Of a stretch of DNA of 64,000 bases, positions 1,271 through 61,332 are shown piece after piece. Made by a program: the position numbers and the translations under genes. Source of the stretch: a virus; the IMG/VR virus record IMGVR_UViG_3300024988_000010. One strand, given 5' to 3'. The notes beneath the pieces are model-generated. The model made no database searches and was not told where the DNA came from. It was given only the letters and a program-made list of their open reading frames with translations. Each line of letters starts with the position of its first letter. The first letter of the stretch is position 1.

Positions 1271-1316
1271 GGGGCGGCCTCCGTGTCGCCCCACCCCAAC
1301 AACTCACCAAGGATGG
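1271..1316 (+). repeat. 46-bp hairpin-plus-leader repeat, copy 1
   Basis: GGGGCGGCCTCCGTGTCGCCCCACCCCAACAACTCACCAAGGATGG. 44/46 identical to 3274-3319. Confidence 0.9.
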
Positions 1317-1321
1317 ACAAC

Positions 1322-3265
1322 ATGACTACCCAAAACATCGAAATCACCAAGCTGTCGAAAAGCCCGCTTAACGCTCGCAAGACGCTGACGCAGAGCGGCA
1401 TCGAGGACATGAAAGCCTCGATCCTCGCCCACGGCCTGATGCAGAATCTTGTCGTCACGGAAGCCGGGGACGGCACCTATCACGTCATCGCCGGGGCACG
1501 CCGCTTGGCCGCCCTCCAGCAACTACAGGCCGAGGGCAAGCTGACGGAGGATTACGCCGTCCCCTGCCAGATCGCCTCCGAGGAACAGGCGGCGGAATTG
1601 AGCCTCGCGGAAAACATCGTCCGCTCCGCCATGCACCCTGCCGACGAGTTCGAGGCGTTCGCGGCCCTCGCCGACAAGGGACGTTCCGCCGAGGAGATCG
1701 CCCTGAACTTCGGCGTCACGGCGAAGCACGTCGAGCAGCGGATGAAATTGGCCCGCGTAGCCCCCTCGCTGCTGGCCGCCTACCGGGCCGGGGAGATGAC
1801 CCTCGAATCGCTCATGGCCTTCACCGTCACCGACGACAAGAAGCGTCAGGTGAAGGTGTGGAAGGGGCTGAGCGGCTGGCAGAAGGACAGCCCGCGAGAA
1901 ATCCGCGGCATCCTCACCGAGAACTCGATCAAAGGCGACTCGACGCTCGCCCGGTTCGTCGGCTTGGAGGCCTACGAGTCCGCTGGCGGGGTTATCCGCC
2001 GCGACCTGTTCGGGGACGACACCTATCTCGACAGCCCCGACCTCGTGAGGGAACTCGCCAGCCGGAAGCTGGAAGCCGCCGCCGAGCAACTGAAAGCGGA
2101 CGGCTGGAAGTGGGTGGAAACCGCCCTTGAGCGGGACTGGCAGTTCGCCAACCAGTGCGAAGAACTGGAGCCGGTACCGCTCGATGCCCCGAAGGAATGG
2201 CTGGACGAGAAGGAGAAGCTGCAAGCCGAGTTCGACGCCCTCGACAAGCATCTCGACGAGATGGACAGCGATTCCGAGGAGTGGGACGCCCTAAGCGAGA
2301 AGCACGAAGGGGTGCAAGACAAGCTTTACGAACTTGAGACGAAGATCGAGGAATACGGCGTCTTCACCCCCGAGCAGAAGGCGATGTCCGGGTGCTACGT
2401 CACGGTGGGCAACGGCGAGGTCCGCATCGAAATGGGGCTGATGAAGCCGGAGGACAGCAAGGAAGTGGGTGAGCCGGAAAAGGATGTCCGCGAAGCGCGG
2501 AAGTCCGAGGCGGAAGCCAAACCGACTGGGCTCTCGAAGCCGCTCATCGATGACCTGAAGGCCTACCGGCTGGGAGCCGCACAGGCAGAGATCGCCAAGC
2601 ATCCACAGATCGCGTTCGACCTGCTGGTGTTCAAGGCGGCCAAGAACTGCTGCGGCCTCAGCCACGCCTATGACGGGCCGAACGTCTCGTTCAATGCGAA
2701 CTTCGGCGGCCCCGCATCTTCGGCTGCCCGCGAGTTCGTGGCGGAGCAGTTGAAGCCGATCAAGGATTCCCTGCCGCTGGATTGGCTGGAACTGGACAAC
2801 CAGCAGGACCAGTTCGCCGCCCTGCAAGCCCTGACATTGGAGCAGAAGCACGCCATCCTCGCCTACTGCGTGGCCAGCACATTGGAGCCGAAACTACTTC
2901 CGAAGGCGGGGCCGGACGACGACCGCCGGACGGCCTACGACATCGCACTGGCCCAGACCGGGGCGAACGTGGCCGGATACTGGCGACCGACCAAGGACAA
3001 CTACCTTGGCCGCCTCACCAAGGACCAGCTGCTCGACCTCGGTGCCGAGTTGCTCGGCCAGCAGTGGGCCTCGCACCGCCGGAACAGCAAGAAAGCCGCT
3101 CTAGCCGAGGATCTGCATCAGGCGTTCGCGGGGCCAAAGAAGCACGGCAAGACGCCGGAGCAGGTGGAACGCCTGACCAACTGGCTCCCCGCCGGGATGG
3201 AGTTCGGCTCGCTCCCGCAGCCCGAGAAGCCCGCCAAAGCGAAGAAGGCACGGAAGGCCGCATAG
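1322..3265 (+). CDS. ParB/RepB/Spo0J-family protein, long plasmid/ICE type
   Basis: N-terminal ParB box (LNARK...GLMQNLVV...VIAGARRLAAL), ENIVRSAMHPADEFEAF, HTH, and a long C-terminal region. Confidence 0.9.
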   Translation: MTTQNIEITKLSKSPLNARKTLTQSGIEDMKASILAHGLMQNLVVTEAGDGTYHVIAGARRLAALQQLQAEGKLTEDYAVPCQIASEEQAAELSLAENIVRSAMHPADEFEAFAALADKGRSAEEIALNFGVTAKHVEQRMKLARVAPSLLAAYRAGEMTLESLMAFTVTDDKKRQVKVWKGLSGWQKDSPREIRGILTENSIKGDSTLARFVGLEAYESAGGVIRRDLFGDDTYLDSPDLVRELASRKLEAAAEQLKADGWKWVETALERDWQFANQCEELEPVPLDAPKEWLDEKEKLQAEFDALDKHLDEMDSDSEEWDALSEKHEGVQDKLYELETKIEEYGVFTPEQKAMSGCYVTVGNGEVRIEMGLMKPEDSKEVGEPEKDVREARKSEAEAKPTGLSKPLIDDLKAYRLGAAQAEIAKHPQIAFDLLVFKAAKNCCGLSHAYDGPNVSFNANFGGPASSAAREFVAEQLKPIKDSLPLDWLELDNQQDQFAALQALTLEQKHAILAYCVASTLEPKLLPKAGPDDDRRTAYDIALAQTGANVAGYWRPTKDNYLGRLTKDQLLDLGAELLGQQWASHRRNSKKAALAEDLHQAFAGPKKHGKTPEQVERLTNWLPAGMEFGSLPQPEKPAKAKKARKAA

Positions 3266-3273
3266 CAACCACG

Positions 3274-3319
3274 GGGGCGGCCTACGGGTCGCCCCACCCC
3301 AACAACTCACCAAGGATGG
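3274..3319 (+). repeat. 46-bp hairpin-plus-leader repeat, copy 2
   Basis: GGGGCGGCCTACGGGTCGCCCCACCCCAACAACTCACCAAGGATGG, with a cUACGg tetraloop hairpin. Confidence 0.9.
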
Positions 3320-3325
3320 TTCACC

Positions 3326-3604
3326 ATGTCTCAAATCAAACTGAATCCCGCCGCCTCAACAGCAGCACGCCGCCGATTCGCTGAAGCCCAATCCGAACGC
3401 GAATGCCAGTTCATGGCGGGCGTGAAGGGCGAGGCACTCATCAGTCCTATTGAGGAGGCCGTGAGGGCGTACATCGAGGCCGATCCGCTGTACCGGGCAG
3501 CTCCAGCGCTACTTGAAGCTCTCCGAGCTGCCGAAGGCGTAATCCATTGGGCTGTTGACCACGGGGCGAAGTCCGAGCCCGTTCTGAAAATGGTGCGGAA
3601 GTAG
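3326..3604 (+). CDS. hypothetical phage protein
   Basis: 92 aa, starts just after repeat copy 2. Contains the AAPALLEAL motif common in small phage proteins. Confidence 0.6.
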   Translation: MSQIKLNPAASTAARRRFAEAQSERECQFMAGVKGEALISPIEEAVRAYIEADPLYRAAPALLEALRAAEGVIHWAVDHGAKSEPVLKMVRK

Positions 3605-3633
3605 ATCAAAGCCACGGCGACCGACGAGGCCGC

Positions 3634-5322
3634 GTGACCCGGACCGTTCAACTCCACCGAGCGACCCTCCACCTCGGCGACTGCATTGAGGCTCTGAAGA
3701 CACTCGCACCGGAGTCGGTGGACAGCATCGTCACCGATCCACCCTACGCGTTCCCAGGCGGATTCATGGGGAAAGGCTGGGACAACTTTGATGGCCGGGA
3801 AGACTGCGGTTTCGGGTATTGGCTCGCAGGTTTCACGGATGGCGAAGGTCATTTCCGGGTCCAGAGACACGAGCGGGGCACGCACGTTTGTGCGTTTCAA
3901 CTCAAGCTTCGCCGCGACGACAGAGCGGCGCTGGAGCGGATCATGAGGTTTGTCGGATACGGCTCGATACATGATCTCGACGGCGACGGGGCAAGCAAGC
4001 CGCAATCGGTGTTTGTCGTGCAAGATAAGGAAGGGTGTGACCGGCTGGTATCGCTGTTCAGGAAGTACCCGCTGACGGCCAAGAAGTCTCTCGACTTCGA
4101 GATCTGGGCTGAGGCGGTGGAGGAATGGCTTGACCGGCCAAGAGGCAACCGATGGACGGGAACAGCCGATCAAACGCGGGCCGCCGTACTGAAGGCACGC
4201 CTAGAGGACGTAAGGAGGTACACGGATGTCCCTTGGTCAGGCCACAAGTTTCAAGACTGGTGCAGGCTGTGGGCCAAGGAATGTTATCGCGTGTTGAAAC
4301 CGGGGGGGCACCTCCTCGCCTTCGGTTCTCCGCGGGGCTATCACCGTCTCTCAGCCGGTATCGAGGACGCGGGGTTCGAGATCCGCGACCAGATAATGTG
4401 GGTCTTCGGCAGTGGATTCCCCAAATCGCACAACCTCGAAGGCGACTGGGAGGGCTGGGGCACGGCTCTGAAGCCAGCTCATGAGCCGATCGTGGTCGCC
4501 CGGAAGCCTTTCAGAGGGACAGTTGCTCAGAACGTCCTAGCCCACGGCACCGGTGCCCTCAAGATCGAGGGCTGCCGGGTGCAGCCGACCGGAGAAAGCC
4601 GCCAGAGGGTCAGCGAAGCATCTCAAGATCGACGTTACACGGAAACGGGCGGGACGAACTTCGCCGCCAAGCCCGGCATTCGTGGCGGAGATCCGGCCGG
4701 AAGATGGCCCGCCAATCTGATCCACGACGGCAGCGATGAAGTCCTCTCCTGCTTCCCCGACGCCCCAGGCCAGTCGCGGGCCGTCACGGGCGACGAGCCT
4801 AGCAGCAAGACGAACAACGTCTATGGTCAGTTCGACGGGCGCCCAGCGACTCAGCCGAGGGGCGATTCGGGTTCCGCAGCACGCTTCTTTTACTGTGCCA
4901 AGGCGAGCCGGAAGGACCGGGATGAGGGGCTGGAGCGGTTTGAGAATCGGCCCGCAGGAGTTAAGAACGAGAGCGGTCGCGGCTTCTCAGACGGCGACCC
5001 CTACCGGGCGATCCTGCGGAAGAACACGCATCCCACGGTCAAGCCGACCGATCTGATGCGTTACCTGTGCCGCCTCGTGACCCCACCGGGCGGAACGGTT
5101 TTGGATCCATTCCTCGGAAGCGGTTCGACAGGCAAGGCCGCCCTTCTGGAAGGGTTCCGGTTCATCGGCATCGAGCGGGAGCCGGAGTATTTCGACATCG
5201 CCTGCGCCCGCGTCGCCGGAGGGGGAGCCGTCCTAGACCAGGGCGTGCCTGCCACTGTCCCGATGGCGAAGGCGGAGCCGGAAAGGCCAGCCCAGCCAGA
5301 CCTGTTCGGCGGGGCAGCATGA
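3634..5322 (+). CDS. N6/N4 DNA methyltransferase (beta class) with an in-frame LAGLIDADG endonuclease domain
   Basis: Motif IV VTDPPY, RVLKPGG, GFPKS, HPTVKP and motif I DPFLGSGSTG. YWLAGFTDGEGHF (3817-3849) begins an insert of about 150 aa. Confidence 0.88.
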   Translation: MTRTVQLHRATLHLGDCIEALKTLAPESVDSIVTDPPYAFPGGFMGKGWDNFDGREDCGFGYWLAGFTDGEGHFRVQRHERGTHVCAFQLKLRRDDRAALERIMRFVGYGSIHDLDGDGASKPQSVFVVQDKEGCDRLVSLFRKYPLTAKKSLDFEIWAEAVEEWLDRPRGNRWTGTADQTRAAVLKARLEDVRRYTDVPWSGHKFQDWCRLWAKECYRVLKPGGHLLAFGSPRGYHRLSAGIEDAGFEIRDQIMWVFGSGFPKSHNLEGDWEGWGTALKPAHEPIVVARKPFRGTVAQNVLAHGTGALKIEGCRVQPTGESRQRVSEASQDRRYTETGGTNFAAKPGIRGGDPAGRWPANLIHDGSDEVLSCFPDAPGQSRAVTGDEPSSKTNNVYGQFDGRPATQPRGDSGSAARFFYCAKASRKDRDEGLERFENRPAGVKNESGRGFSDGDPYRAILRKNTHPTVKPTDLMRYLCRLVTPPGGTVLDPFLGSGSTGKAALLEGFRFIGIEREPEYFDIACARVAGGGAVLDQGVPATVPMAKAEPERPAQPDLFGGAA

Positions 5323-5492
5323 TCCTCCCTGGCCTCGACCGCTTCCACCTCTGTGCCCTCTACGCGGCACGAATCGCCGTATCCGAGGGCAGGCTGGGCG
5401 AGAGCGAGTATGTCAGGCAGATGACTTACCGGATGTGCGAGGGAGGGGCGTTCAGGGACGAGAACCCAGAGACCACGGAGGAAGCACGATGA
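5319..5492 (+). CDS. small hypothetical protein
   Basis: ATGA overlap with the methyltransferase stop (MILPGLDRFHLC...). Confidence 0.5.
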   Translation: MILPGLDRFHLCALYAARIAVSEGRLGESEYVRQMTYRMCEGGAFRDENPETTEEAR

Positions 5493-5650
5493 AGATCGAA
5501 TTCACGGTATTGGCGAACGATCCTCCGGAACCGTTGGAAATCCAGATCGACACCGATTCGAACCAACTGACCGTTCGCTTGCCGGTCGTGGAAGAGCGGA
5601 TCGACAAGTATCAGTGGCGGTTCCAGCTCACCCCCGTTGAGGCCGCGTGA
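5489..5650 (+). CDS. small hypothetical protein
   Basis: ATGA overlap upstream, GTGA overlap downstream, GGAGG RBS. Confidence 0.55.
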   Translation: MKIEFTVLANDPPEPLEIQIDTDSNQLTVRLPVVEERIDKYQWRFQLTPVEAA

Positions 5651-6666
5651 CCTGGGTCCAGAAAACGCTCTTCAGCGAGGAACCAGAGCCTTCCTGCCTC
5701 CTGCCCCTCGATCAGTACGACGTGATCGCGGTGGGTTACAGCGGCGGCAAAGACAGCCTCGCCTCCCTGCTTGACCTGCTGGATCGTGGCGTCCCGCCCT
5801 CCAAGATCGAGCTTCACCACCACGATATCGACGGCCAGGGCGAGGCCCTCATGGACTGGCCTTGCACGCGGGCCTACGTGAAGGCCACCGCCGAGGCGTT
5901 GGGCATACCGGTTGTCTTCTCCTGGCGGGAAGGCGGGTTCGTCCGTGAAATGCTCCGCGACCGGACGGCGACGGCTCCGGTGGTCTATGAGCGTGGCGGC
6001 GAGACCGTCACCCTGCCCACGAAGCGGGAGACGCCGGGGACGCGGCTGAAATTTCCGCAGGTCAGTGCCGACCTCAACGTCCGCTGGTGTTCCGCGTATC
6101 TCAAGATCGACGTGATGGCCCGCGTGCTGGCCAATGATCCGGCCTACCAGGGGAAGAAAATCCTGGTCGTCACCGGGGAGCGGCGGCAGGAGTCGTCCGC
6201 CAGGGCCAGGTACGCCGAGAGCGAGCCGCACCGGACGAACACCCGGAGCCGCACCGTCCACCAATGGCGGAACGTCATCGACTGGAGCGAGGAGCAGGTC
6301 TGGGACGAAATCCGGCGGTGGAACGTCCGCCCACATCCGAGTTATTCCCTCGGCTGGGGAAGAACCTCTTGTCTTGCCTGCATCTTCGGGGACGCAGACC
6401 AGTGGGCCAGCGTGAAGTCCATCGCCCCGGAACGCTTCCAGCGGATCGCTGGGCTTGAGCGGGACTTCCGCAGCACGATCAGGAAGGGTCAGACGGTCGA
6501 GGAAATCGCCGCCAAAGGCCGGGAGTTCGTGTCCGATAAGCCATCCGAACCTCGGGCGTTGGCCATGTCGCCGGACGCGTTCACCAGGGAGCACTTCTTC
6601 CTGAAACCGGGGGAGGTGTGGACGGTTCCGGCGGGGGCGTACAAGCGGTGCGGAGGGCCGAGTTGA
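5647..6666 (+). CDS. PAPS-reductase-family (PP-loop) protein
   Basis: YSGGKDS PP-loop, RWCSAYLK, TGERRQES.AR, W...QVW, and C-terminal SCLACIF. Confidence 0.85.
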   Translation: MTWVQKTLFSEEPEPSCLLPLDQYDVIAVGYSGGKDSLASLLDLLDRGVPPSKIELHHHDIDGQGEALMDWPCTRAYVKATAEALGIPVVFSWREGGFVREMLRDRTATAPVVYERGGETVTLPTKRETPGTRLKFPQVSADLNVRWCSAYLKIDVMARVLANDPAYQGKKILVVTGERRQESSARARYAESEPHRTNTRSRTVHQWRNVIDWSEEQVWDEIRRWNVRPHPSYSLGWGRTSCLACIFGDADQWASVKSIAPERFQRIAGLERDFRSTIRKGQTVEEIAAKGREFVSDKPSEPRALAMSPDAFTREHFFLKPGEVWTVPAGAYKRCGGPS

Positions 6667-9037: not shown

Positions 9038-9451
9038 ATGAGATCGCTGCACGTCTTCACGTCCGTCATCGGCCGGCTGCTGGGTCAGCACGCAACCCTC
9101 CGGCCCGATCCGCCCCATCGTCGCCCCGGCCCGCTCTACCCCATCCGGGGACTCGCCTGGACGGCCGAGTTTATCGCCTCGAAGGCCTTCCTCCAGACGC
9201 CCGAGTGGAAGCGGGCCCGCTACGACGCCCTACGCGCGAGCGACGGCCGCTGCCAGCTCTGCGGCCGCAGCAAGCACGAGCTTCCGCCGGGCGAGTACCT
9301 GAACGTCGACCACATCTTCCCCAGGAAGACGCATCCGCACCTGGCGCTCGACCTGGAAAACCTCCAGGTCACGGACTCGGACTGCAATATCGGGAAGGGG
9401 AATCGGCACGCCGACGACTGGCGGCGTCCCAAGGCACGCGGGGGTGCGTGA
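9038..9451 (+). CDS. HNH endonuclease
   Basis: CQLCG...VDHIFP...DLENLQVTDSDCNIGKG. Confidence 0.88.
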   Translation: MRSLHVFTSVIGRLLGQHATLRPDPPHRRPGPLYPIRGLAWTAEFIASKAFLQTPEWKRARYDALRASDGRCQLCGRSKHELPPGEYLNVDHIFPRKTHPHLALDLENLQVTDSDCNIGKGNRHADDWRRPKARGGA

Positions 9452-18999: not shown

Positions 19000-20619
19000 A
19001 TGTGGTTTAAGAAGAAGCAGCCCGAGACACGGCCGGAAGAACCGGCCCGCGGGGGCTTCTTCTCGACCGACGGCTTTCCTCCGGCCCGCGACAACGCGGT
19101 CAGGCGCCACAAGCGGCTCCAGGAATACCTGGCCCTCACGTTCCAGCGGACGGTCGACGACCTGAAGGCGGTCGACGAGGCGGGGAACCCCGTCACGGTC
19201 GCCATGGACGACGCCCAGGGCCTCCAGCGCGTCAAGGCCATGAACGGCCTCGGAATCGGCGGCTACATCCCCGAGACCCAGTTCGCGTGGTACTGCGGGC
19301 AGGGCTTCATCGGCTACCAGGCGGCGGCGCTCATCAGCCAGAACTGGTTCGTCGACAAGGCCTGCACCATGCCGGCCAAGGACGCCACCCGCAACGGGTA
19401 CGAGGTTTCGGTCAACGACGGCACCGAGGTCGACCCCGAGGTGCTCGACTACATCCGCGAGCAAGACAAGAAATACGAGGTGCTCCGCAACTGCGTCGAG
19501 TTCGTCAAGCTGGGGCGTGTCTTCGGCATCCGCGTGGCGATGTTCGTCGTCGATTCGAGCGACCCGGAATACTACGCCAAGCCGTTCAACCCCGATGGGG
19601 TGAAGCCCGGAAGCTACCGCGGCATCAGCCAGATCGACCCCTACTGGATCACGCCGGAGCTGGGCCAGGAGGCGGCGGCAAACCCCGCCGCAATGGACTT
19701 CTACGAGCCGACCTGGTGGCGGATCAACGGCAGGCGCGTCCACCGCACGCACCTCGTGATCTACCGCAACGGCGACCTGCCCGACATCCTCAAGCCCGCC
19801 TACCTCTACGGCGGCATCCCCGTGCCCCAGAAGATCGCCGAGCGCGTCTACGCGGCCGAGCGGACGGCCAACGAGGCCCCGATGCTCGCCATGACCAAGC
19901 GGCTCACCGTGCTGAAGGTGGACATCACCCAGGCGATGGCCAACCAGGAGGCGTTCAACGCCCGGATGGAATACTGGACGCAGATCCAGAACAACTTCGG
20001 GGTGAAGATCATCGGCGGCGACGAGGAGATCGAGCAGTTCGACACGACCCTCGCCGAGCTGGACGCCGCGATCATGACGCAGTACCAGATCGCCTGCGCC
20101 GCCGCCGAGGTGCCCGCCACCAAGATGCTGGGCACGCAGCCCAAGGGTTTTAATGCCACCGGCGAGTTCGACGAGGCGAGCTACCACGAGATGCTGGCTT
20201 CGCTCCAGCAGCACGACCTATCGCCGCTGGTCAACCGCCACCACCTGCTGCTGATACGCTCCGAGGTGGCCCCGAAGTTCAAGATGAAGCCGTTCAACAC
20301 GGAAGTCTCCTGGAACGAGCTCGACGAGCAGACGGCGGCCGAGCAGGCCGAGACCGAGCTTAAGAAGGCCCAGGCCGCACAGGCCTACGTGGAGATGGGC
20401 GCGGTGGACGGATTCGACGTGCGGTCCAAGCTCATCGCCGACAAGCACTCCGGCTTCAACGGCATCGACCCGGTCGTGCCGGGCGGGCCCGGGGACCGCG
20501 AGGCGGAGCTGGAGAACCGGGAAGCCGAGCGCGAGCGGCAGGACGCCGAACTGTCGGCACTGCAGGCCGGGCAGGCTTCGGAGTCGGAAGAGAATCCCGG
20601 AGAGAACGGGGCCGAGTAG
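19000..20619 (+). CDS. portal protein (DUF1073 type)
   Basis: [50 protein letters not shown]. Follows TerL. Confidence 0.9.
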
Positions 20620-21681: not shown

Positions 21682-21828
21682 ATGGCCATCGTGACGATCA
21701 GCGTCCACTGCCGCGTGAAGCACTGGTGGCTCATCAAGGCGATCAACTACCCTCTGCTCGCCCTGGGCCTCGAGGCGTGGATACCTTCCATCTGCATCGA
21801 AGCGAAAGTCGTCTCCGATGCAGCCTGA
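21682..21828 (+). CDS. small hypothetical protein (48 aa, not in the ORF track)
   Basis: [48 protein letters not shown]. Fills the gap before the next gene. Confidence 0.45.
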
Positions 21829-23452
21829 GACGGCGCCCGGACAGGGGCCGATCCGCGCCGCCGGCGTGCTGTTCGCCTCTGGCGACACGGTCCTGCTCCT
21901 GAAGCGTTCCGACACCGGCCAATGGGCCTTCCCCGGCGGCAAGATCGAGGACGGCGAGTCTCCCGAGCAGGCGGCCGCACGCGAGTCCCGCGAGGAGATC
22001 GGCGTCGAACCGACGGCCCTGGAGGAGATCGACCGGTCCGACGACGGCCGCGTGGCCTTCACCACGTTCCTGGCCCGCACGGATGCCTTCGAGCCCACCC
22101 TCAACGACGAGCACACCGAATTCGCCTGGGCCGACCTGGCCTCGCCCCCGCAGCCGCTCCATCCCGGCGTCGAGAAGACCCTGAAGAAATACACGGCGAA
22201 CAAGCACGTCGCCCCGCCCGCCGCGGACGCCGCCGAGACGGCACGCCGTGCGGACCTCAACGGCTTCATCACCATCGAGCGCAACCCCATCTCGCGGGCG
22301 GGCGTGTTCCCGTATCTGGGCCGCAGCATCGGCGCGCCGGAGCCGGACAGGGTTTACAACGTCTACCGCCCCGCGGAAGAGTTCACGCCGGAGATGCTGG
22401 ACAGCTTCAAGCTGATCCCCATCGTCGACGACCACACCATGATCGGCGAGGGACACACCCCGGCCGAGTCCAAGGGCGTGCACGGCACCACCGGCGAGGG
22501 CGTCGTCTTCGAGGACGGCGTGCTCTACGCCCCGCTTCGCATCTTCAGCGAGAAGCTGAAATCCCTCATCGAGAGCGGGAAGCGGGCCCTCAGCCTCGGA
22601 TACCGCTGCGCCTACGAGAAGGCCTCCGGCGTCTTCGACGGCGTGCGCTACGACTACATCCAGCGAAACTTGCGCGGCAACCACCTCGCGCTCGTCGACG
22701 CCGCACGCTGCGACGTCGCAGTCCTCGACAACCACCACGCATACGACAACCACATGGCGTTCGATCACTTCGATCTGGCGCTCGACAACCACCAAGAGGA
22801 GAAGGCTATGGCCGACGAAACCAAGAAGGACGAATTGGAAGACCGCCTGAAGAAGGCGGAGGACGGCCTGAAAGCCGCCCTCGACTGGATCGACGCCCGC
22901 AAGGCGCAGGACGAGGCCGAGGAGAAGGAGGCGGCAGAGAAGGCCGCCAAGGACGCCGAGGAAGAGGCCAAGAAGAAAGAGGCCGAAGACGAGGCAAAAG
23001 AGGATGAGAAGGCCGAGGACGAATCGAAGGACGACGAAGCCGAGAAGAAATCCGCCGAGGACGCCGCCGAGATCAAGGCCCTGAAAGCCGAACTCAAGGT
23101 CCTGAAGTCGGCCATGGACTCGCTCGGCAAGTCCACCAAGGACGCCCTGACGAAGGTCGCCCAGGACAAGGTGACGCACAAGTCGCTGCTGTCCGAGGTT
23201 TCCCGCCGCAACGAGCTGGCCGGCAAGTTGTCCCAGCACTTCGGCGCGTTCGACCACGCCGAGATGACCCTCGACGAGGTGACCGCCTACGGCGTCAAGA
23301 AGCTGGGCATCCCCTGCCCCGCCGGCCACGAAGAGACCGCCCTCAACGTCTTCTTCGCCGCCAACAAGCCGTCCAGGAACGCGTTCACGCTCGACTCGGC
23401 GGACGCCAAGCGTTCGAGCGAGATCGACGCCTACCTCAACAAGTCCAAATAA
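21818..23452 (+). CDS. NUDIX hydrolase fused to DUF2213 prohead protease/scaffold
   Basis: Nudix box [23 protein letters not shown], then [11 protein letters not shown]...LSLGYRC...GNHLALV, then a charged scaffold tail. Confidence 0.88.
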
Positions 23453-59521: not shown

Positions 59522-59823
59522 GGGAGGACCGGCCTCGTGGTGGTGGGCCCGGCAGAGGATGCGCACGGCGGCTGGGGACCCGGCGGAGGCTCCCCCGCCC
59601 GGTCCATGCAATTGTCCGCCACGCCGCGGCGTTCGTCAATTCGACCCGGCCCGGACGCCTTCGGATGCGACGGGTCGTGACCGATCCGACGATCGGCCGG
59701 GCGCGGGAGCCCTGGGCAGGGCCGGCGCGACTCCTTAGAATCGATGCGCCCCTCCCCCCGCGCCGTCGAGGTCGACCCGCGGTCAAGCATGGCGCCACCC
59801 ATGAACCGAGGACGCCCAGCCCT

Positions 59824-61332
<1,509 letters not shown>

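Follow-up and report, generated by a model that had tools for sequence, protein, structure and literature searches.

We analyzed a 64,000-nucleotide stretch of viral DNA (IMG/VR record IMGVR_UViG_3300024988_000010; hereafter, the window) and found that one of its genes encodes a class-beta N6/N4 DNA methyltransferase (methylase) that carries a LAGLIDADG endonuclease domain in frame. The open reading frame (ORF) at positions 3634–5322 (+) has 562 open codons and a GTG start with GAGG 8 nucleotides (nt) upstream, and the insert is in frame with the methylase at both ends, without a start or stop codon of its own. No splicing machinery was found for the insert at the RNA or protein level, which indicates that it is made together with the methylase and stays in the finished enzyme. 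We consider that the insert is probably an inteinless LAGLIDADG homing endonuclease lodged in a permissive methylase loop, which would home without splicing. From its sequence, it is the same element, in the same methylase family, as the insertion in gp79 of the mycobacteriophage Taj, an arrangement published in 2023 (Gosselin et al., 2023, Genes 14:288; PMC9957025).

Structure of the split methylase and its insert

The first-pass annotation, made by a model from the sequence, had proposed a LAGLIDADG domain embedded in frame in a DNA methyltransferase, and a Pfam search detected both families above their curated cut-offs. PF01555 (N6_N4_Mtase) matched residues 200–523 at profile positions 22–219 (E = 4.5e-34), and PF00961 (LAGLIDADG_1) matched residues 64–161 (E = 1e-14; 55.7 bits, cut-off 23.1). 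Profile positions 1–21 of PF01555, motif IV included, are represented by the 50 N-terminal residues, so the LAGLIDADG domain divides the methylase. Both methylase halves keep their motifs (DPPY and FLGSG, Table 1), as had been proposed, and they follow the class-beta order of motif IV (DPPY), target-recognition region, and motif I (FxGxG) on a Rossmann-like fold. Judged by these motifs, the ORF encodes an intact class-beta N6/N4 DNA methyltransferase. The full-length AlphaFold2 (AF2) model had a mean predicted local distance difference test score (pLDDT) of 71, which was low only within the variable recognition region, and in Foldseek its methylase portion resembled CcrM, M.BceJIV, M.RsrI, M.PvuII, and M1.HpyAVI.

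To place the insert, we used an alignment of 120 homologues from a search of 5.8 billion proteins, together with three phage proteins. Comparison with the 85 insert-free homologues put the extra segment after the conserved FMGKxWD, in a surface loop running from motif IV (DPPY, strand beta4) to the next helix. The segment comprises residues 51–207 relative to alleles with a short loop and residues 51–195 relative to alleles with a 48-residue loop, the junctions being WD|NFDG on one side and ...RR|YTDV, or ...FQ|DW, on the other. These limits agree within a few codons with the region of about 3790–4250 after DPPY that was first suggested, and both strings quoted as its borders are present in the protein: MGKGWD is residues 45–50, and FQDWCRLWAKECYRVLKPGG begins at residue 206. 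The single motif with an acidic residue that had been noted is LAGFTDGEG, with E71. The insert also contains PLTAKK, which we take to hold the putative active-site lysine, the counterpart of K98 in I-CreI.

The insert is predicted to adopt a LAGLIDADG fold of I-CreI size. In a phmmer search of the PDB, both halves of I-OnuI-family meganucleases matched it with E values of about 1e-15. Within the full-length AF2 model, its pLDDT was 85–92 and it formed a helix, two strands, a helix, two strands, and two helices; DSSP on the AF2 models gave the topology alpha-beta-beta-alpha-beta-beta-alpha plus C-terminal helices. When the insert was folded alone, the pLDDT was 82 and the predicted template modeling (TM) score was 0.74. 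Foldseek matched it with a probability of 1.00 to I-OnuI, I-CreI, and I-TnaI, with a TM score of 0.66 and a root-mean-square deviation of 2.4 Å for the I-OnuI halves, and a TM score of 0.70 by target length for the whole chains of I-CreI and I-TnaI. The full-length model also matched LAGLIDADG meganucleases. Thus, Pfam, AF2, and Foldseek all pointed to the fold that the first reading of the sequence had anticipated. The insert nevertheless falls into none of the classes of free-standing, intron-encoded, or intein-encoded LAGLIDADG enzymes.

Three explanations had been offered in the first-pass annotation: an inteinless homing endonuclease tolerated in a loop, a group I intron read in frame, and a fused methylase–nuclease acting as a one-gene restriction-modification or exclusion device. 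The first is the one that our results support and the last gained no support, as discussed below, while the intron is contradicted by the Rfam search, the RNA fold, and the conservation of the protein. The search for an intron core that the annotation had recommended returned nothing: no group I intron or other RNA family was found in Rfam at E ≤ 10 within positions 3000–6000. The RNA fold of the insert did not stand out in stability from those of shuffled sequence (z = −1.18), and the entire insert, both junctions included, is conserved as protein, with nonsynonymous substitution (dN) well below saturated synonymous substitution (dS). Furthermore, the endonuclease fold alone fills all 145 insert residues, so no space is left for a ribozyme core. 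We therefore rejected an in-frame group I intron. An intein was likewise rejected. As had been claimed, the protein contains no Hint or intein family in the Pfam search at E ≤ 1, and no conserved Cys/Ser/Thr or His-Asn occurs at either junction in the 26 aligned inserts; the insert is also too short for both an endonuclease and a Hint domain. That a group I intron with an in-frame endonuclease ORF, or a degenerate intein, is removed after all is hardly credible to us. Such an element could leave an open, in-frame ORF like this one, given that fungal mitochondrial intron ORFs are fused in frame to the upstream exon, and the sequence relatives in the PDB are intron-encoded I-OnuI-family enzymes, but the alignment of all 145 residues to I-CreI-size folds, the empty Rfam search, the ordinary RNA fold, and the protein-conserved junctions without splicing residues all argue against removal.

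Other reading frames across the insert were also considered. An ORF on the minus strand (3331–4173) overlaps the insert; it matched no Pfam family and we took it to be an artefact of high GC content rather than a gene. None of the ORFs across the insert looked like a concealed ShiLan-type nuclease in another frame.

Distribution, selection, and recombination of the insert

The two-domain architecture was shared by about 35 clusters at 90% identity (45–73% identical), and the LAGLIDADG domain occupied identical alignment columns in every insert-bearing protein. Insert-free homologues were numerous; they include 398-residue prophage methylases from Pseudomonas aeruginosa. The loop after FMGKxWD occurred in four states: 4–6 residues (64 proteins), approximately 48 residues (22 proteins), 92 residues (2 proteins), and approximately 157 residues with LAGLIDADG (35 proteins). 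This range of lengths marks the loop as permissive, and the methylase with its insert therefore probably keeps working. The loop of 46–48 residues (22 clusters) is conserved, occurs as two sequence types, and forms a single clade on the tree of the insert flanks, and the 92-residue version was found in 2 clusters; no recognizable domain was seen in loops of 48 and 92 residues (P0028, P0087, P0085, and P0104 were compared).

An exhaustive phmmer search of residues 51–195 against 1.84 billion cluster representatives identified 42 clusters at 50% identity that matched the insert with E ≤ 1e-30. Many of these are proteins of 500–860 residues with one match at about positions 45–200, and LAGLIDADG_1 lay inside N6_N4_Mtase in all 10 of the long matches that were scanned. 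Free-standing proteins of 145–200 residues were 42–51% identical to the insert, and on this similarity a free-standing single-motif endonuclease gene is a plausible ancestor. A free-standing protein of 281 residues was also found on a phage-like contig of a Chloroflexota metagenome-assembled genome (MAG) (DAINCT010000439.1, 81–926); it joins a Cys-rich, zinc-ribbon-like N-terminus to a single LAGLIDADG domain, which shares 41% identity with the insert, and it is possibly a free-living relative of the insert. The ORF next to it matched no family. Scanning genome contigs with the insert alignment yielded mostly generic LAGLIDADG proteins of bacteria of the candidate phyla radiation and of archaea, together with one Thauera methylase of the second lineage described below; this profile scan found no close relatives of the insert in representative genomes. 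In its own genome, the insert is the only LAGLIDADG. No orthologue of the methylase was detected in 60 relatives of the host genome, the sole match being distant (38%), so no empty allele is available in close kin.

Among phages, a tblastn search of residues 45–215 against 50,697 phage records detected the methylases of Kersh, Taj, Wee, Mantra, and other Mycobacterium phages at 54–56% identity over 99–100% of the 171-residue query, and those of three Rhodobacter phages at 33% identity. In the joint alignment, the actinophage inserts fell at the same columns as the insert in the window. The inserts form two lineages at the same insertion site that are only about 35% identical: lineage A comprises this window, its Delftia and Pseudomonas relatives, Taj, and Kersh, and lineage B comprises the Rhodobacter phages, the Thauera MAG, and the homologues P0034, P0040, and P0070. 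Inserts of lineage B can occupy methylases whose bodies are 64–68% identical to the hosts of lineage A. The methylases of lineage B (Thauera MAG, 2803–4659; Rhodobacter phage RcMrWorf gp52, 2303–4036) always have approximately 26 extra residues between DPPY and FMxK, a segment that is also present in some insert-free methylases (P0102).

The DGEG and P-L-x-A-K-K sequences were invariant in 26 of 26 inserts across both lineages. Among the proteobacterial alleles, the dN of the LAGLIDADG core was 0.06–0.19 while dS exceeded 1, and in the least saturated pair the dN/dS ratio, a rough estimate, was 0.055 for the insert and 0.114 for the adjacent methylase core. In most pairs, the identity of the insert was equal to or higher than that of its flanks. 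By these sequence comparisons, the insert is a protein constrained by purifying selection no less strongly than the methylase core, not a decaying remnant, and together with the invariant motifs this suggests that it is likely functional.

We also examined how the insert is distributed over the methylase tree. A tree built from the entire methylase body implied that the insert was gained or lost at least 8 times. These changes were not accepted as 8 homing events, in view of a flank tree that fits one clade and a C-terminal module that is recombinant: for the immediate flanks (residues 8–50 and 208–300), a tree with a single insert-bearing clade was no worse than the unconstrained one (p-AU = 0.50), whereas for the C-terminal recognition and S-adenosylmethionine (SAM)-binding modules the monophyly of the insert-bearing proteins was rejected (log-likelihood difference, 478; p-AU = 5e-5). 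The recognition regions were 34–63% identical in most insert-bearing pairs, even in pairs whose inserts were 95–100% identical; in P0016/P0019 and P0008/P0009, the inserts were 100% identical and the adjacent cores 88–96% identical, and the recognition regions only 42–54%. Since the flank and C-terminal trees disagree, the N-terminal module with its insert behaves, on these trees, as one lineage that has recombined with many C-terminal modules. Within-gene recombination has been reported for the actinophage methylase family, and the pattern here is the same (PMC9957025).

One pair of alleles contains a candidate conversion patch. P0004 carries the insert, and P0087, which belongs to the P. aeruginosa-type clade, has a 48-residue loop. 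The two genes were 95% identical over nt 25–108 (80 of 84 positions) and 98–99% identical over nt 733–1600 (859 of 868), but between these regions (nt 109–732) P0004 was only 46–73% identical to P0087 and 72–80% identical to the insert-bearing P0005. This divergent patch of 625 nt covers the insert together with 36 nt on its upstream side and about 100 nt on its downstream side, and the genes neighboring the two loci are unrelated. A replaced patch of this kind is expected from double-strand-break repair off an insert-bearing donor, and with its short converted flanks centered on the insert it looks like a homing event. A second pair, P0002/P0028, was rejected as a patch, its N-termini being only 48–51% identical.

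Homing, domestication, or exclusion

The preferred explanation, a homing endonuclease that does without splicing, can be put as a sequence of steps. A single polypeptide combines the class-beta amino-methyltransferase with a complete single-motif, I-CreI-like domain in a surface loop. When the methylase dimerizes, the two inserted domains would pair via their LAGLIDADG helices and bring the two E71 carboxylates together in a nuclease active site. The targets cut by this nuclease would be alleles of the same methylase gene that lack the insert, in the genomes of phages residing in or infecting the same cell, and recombinational repair of the cut would then transfer the insert to them along with some of the adjacent sequence. 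In its stronger form, in which an active nuclease half-site assembled by dimerization of the host protein moves among the methylase alleles of unrelated phages across phyla, with P0004/P0087 as a recent example, we advance this explanation tentatively.

The pairing step was modeled. Two copies of the insert, predicted with the alignment, reached an ipSAE of 0.70, compared with 0.00 for the best of 3 controls, a value that was obtained with the isolated domain and may mirror solved I-CreI-type dimers. The calibration mark for such predictions was reached by 20 of the 30 proteins solved as one-chain pairs and by 1 of the 23 solved as single chains. Three runs agreed in at least 96% of contacts, the partner pLDDT was at least 75, and the predicted homodimer interface was the LAGLIDADG helix (protein residues 58–71; fragment residues 14–27). 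The pairing score may thus reveal a likeness to solved dimers rather than binding. Dimerization is regarded as obligatory in class-beta methylases (PMC7544214), and a half-site nuclease on a dimeric host would fit neatly with the model. The loop that follows DPPY may be situated close to the dimer axis, an idea that was not counted as evidence here.

Several points weigh against homing as we have described it. The shuffling of C-terminal modules, instead of homing, could explain most of the disjunct distribution of the insert, and ordinary phage mosaicism could yield the P0004/P0087 patch without a nuclease; among the 35 insert-bearing alleles, no conversion patch other than P0004/P0087 was found. 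Synonymous sites were saturated in most pairs, which makes the dN/dS values rough and leaves one or two usable ratios, and strong, long-lasting purifying selection would be seen in a domesticated domain as well. The dimer prediction was made for the isolated domain rather than the full-length protein.

These points bear most directly on the proposal that the domain no longer homes and now aids the methylase, for instance by serving as an additional module for DNA binding or dimerization next to the active site. LAGLIDADG folds serve non-nuclease roles in WhiA and in intron maturases; here, the insert is selected as strongly as the methylase core, the flanks fit one origin and a largely vertical descent of the N-terminal module, the loop adjoins motif IV, and a dimer, as predicted for the insert, would suit a host enzyme that is itself dimeric. 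In addition, no strong evidence of transfer between phages has been reported for the Taj-type insert in actinophages (PMC9957025). We nevertheless regard domestication as rather unlikely, because two lineages with only about 35% identity have both kept, without variation, the metal-binding acid E71 and the PLxAKK lysines, residues that are usually lost from domesticated LAGLIDADG proteins; because the domain is absent from 85 of the 120 homologous methylases; and because the P0004/P0087 patch shows that it moved laterally in recent times. A third proposal is that the nuclease is aimed, as an exclusion or restriction-like device, at DNA from other phages or the host, and that the methylase protects or marks the DNA of its own phage. 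The union of a nuclease and a methylase in one polypeptide, its position in an early region with ParB_N, PAPS-reductase-like, and HNH proteins, and the retained catalytic residues are compatible with such a device, but the specificity module is swapped freely under a constant insert (42–54% versus 100% identity), which means that the specificities of the nuclease and the methylase are uncoupled. Fused enzymes of the Type IIG/IIC-like restriction-modification class usually contain a PD-(D/E)XK nuclease; the protein in the window differs from that class in its LAGLIDADG fold and in this pairing of identical inserts with divergent specificity modules. We consider an anti-competitor role quite improbable.

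Genomic context and relation to known systems

The features of the gene are listed in Table 1. It is an early-region prophage gene flanked by genes for a ParB_N protein (1283–3265) and a PAPS-reductase-like protein (5647–6666), with SSB and AAA_24 ATPase genes nearby downstream and the portal gene at 19000–20619. Beyond the prophage the window continues into chromosomal genes; one of these, a pyruvate kinase gene (59665–61332, +), is 87–90% identical to those of Paludisphaera species (Isosphaeraceae, Planctomycetota), which indicates that the viral element is an integrated prophage whose host belongs to Isosphaeraceae. The GC content at third codon positions was 73% in the methylase gene and 68% in the insert, compared with 84–85% in the neighboring genes 1283–3265 and 5647–6666; the lower values suggest a recent import of the methylase module into a planctomycete prophage. 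The closest named relatives of the methylase are from Delftia and Pseudomonas. The same early region also contains a free-standing HNH endonuclease ORF (9038–9451, +; PF01844, E = 1e-7), and a NUDIX hydrolase domain fused to DUF2213 (21818–23452, +) is encoded in the structural-gene region by the portal gene.

Table 1. Features of the methylase gene and its insert, in window positions.
Feature	Positions	Strand	Evidence or remark
Whole gene: class-beta N6/N4 DNA methyltransferase with embedded LAGLIDADG domain	3634–5322	+	Pfam, Foldseek
N-terminal methylase segment, residues 1–50, with conserved FMGKxWD	3634–3783	+	D35, P37, Y38, F44, M45, W49, and D50 invariant in alignment
Motif IV DPPY, residues 35–38	3736–3747	+	Intact
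LAGLIDADG-specific insertion, residues 51–195 (145 residues), I-CreI size	3784–4218	+	PF00961, phmmer, AF2, Foldseek
LAGLIDADG motif LAGFTDGEG, residues 64–72	3823–3849	+	G, D, G, E, G, and F invariant in 26 inserts of both lineages
E71, metal-binding acidic position (motif position 8)	3844–3846	+	Within LAGFTDGEG
PLTAKK, residues 146–151, invariant P-L-x-A-K-K	4069–4086	+	Alignment (fragment numbering P102, L103, A105, K106, K107)
Loop tail YTDVPWSGHKFQ, residues 196–207	4219–4254	+	Shared with insert-free 48-residue-loop alleles (BLASTP reaching back to residue 195/196)
Methylase core past the insert, residues 208–300 (helix, RVLKPGG strand, motifs V–VIII)	4255–4533	+	pLDDT 83–95, many invariant columns
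Variable target-recognition region, residues 301–460; module shuffled among alleles	4534–5013	+	Pairwise identities
C-terminal SAM-binding part	5014–5322	+	D491, F493, G495, and G497 invariant
Motif I DPFLGSGSTG, residues 491–500	5104–5133	+	FLGSG at residues 493–497 intact

Homing endonucleases are generally held to survive in essential or useful genes only because an intron or intein removes them. A widespread and conserved endonuclease domain that is retained in its host protein would represent a third route to harmlessness for such an element, and this bears on how new multi-domain proteins originate from selfish elements. The combination of a dimeric host and a half-site nuclease would give that route a concrete structural rationale, and compact, tethered I-CreI-like domains might interest meganuclease engineers. 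Taken alone, the window is an additional example rather than a discovery; what is new here is the breadth of the architecture, the pattern of selection, the second lineage, the candidate transfer event, and the rationale based on the dimer. The architecture, previously reported for nine mycobacteriophage methylases, spans phages of Planctomycetota, Proteobacteria, and Actinobacteria in dozens of clusters at 50% identity.

Among known LAGLIDADG enzymes, I-CreI and I-TnaI resemble the insert in size, in fold, and in the single motif with an acid at position 8, and the dimer predicted for the insert would, as in I-CreI, form through the motif helices. They are free-standing ORFs in group I introns, whereas the insert in the window has neither an intron nor its own start and stop. 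I-CreI is only 12–15% identical to the insert in the structural alignment, and the closest sequences in the PDB are halves of I-OnuI-family enzymes. The LAGLIDADG inteins of phage methylases (C5 motif IV; ShiLan gp65) also place an in-frame endonuclease in a methylase gene, but the insert in the window has no Hint domain or junction residues and is too short to be one of them. A homing-type endonuclease gene in the same methylase family, again without an intron or intein and read through in frame, has been described by Arsenault et al. (2025; PMC11855218). That nuclease is read in a different frame from the methylase, whose own translation across the insertion gives a poorly structured loop; it also belongs to a different family and occupies a different insertion site from the in-frame domain in the window.

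The closest known system is the “second” LAGLIDADG endonuclease, located outside the intein, in the methylases of nine cluster-F mycobacteriophages such as Taj (gp79), for which no splicing domain or intron was detectable and AlphaFold predicted a separate domain (PMC9957025). The insert in the window is homologous to it, junctions included, and lies in the same PF01555 loop, and the first part of the methylase core (core1) is 74% identical to that of Taj. The differences are that the host here is a planctomycete prophage (Paludisphaera) and not an actinophage, and that the element is now found in dozens of clusters, with a second lineage in Rhodobacter phages and Thauera and with one patch centered on the insert.

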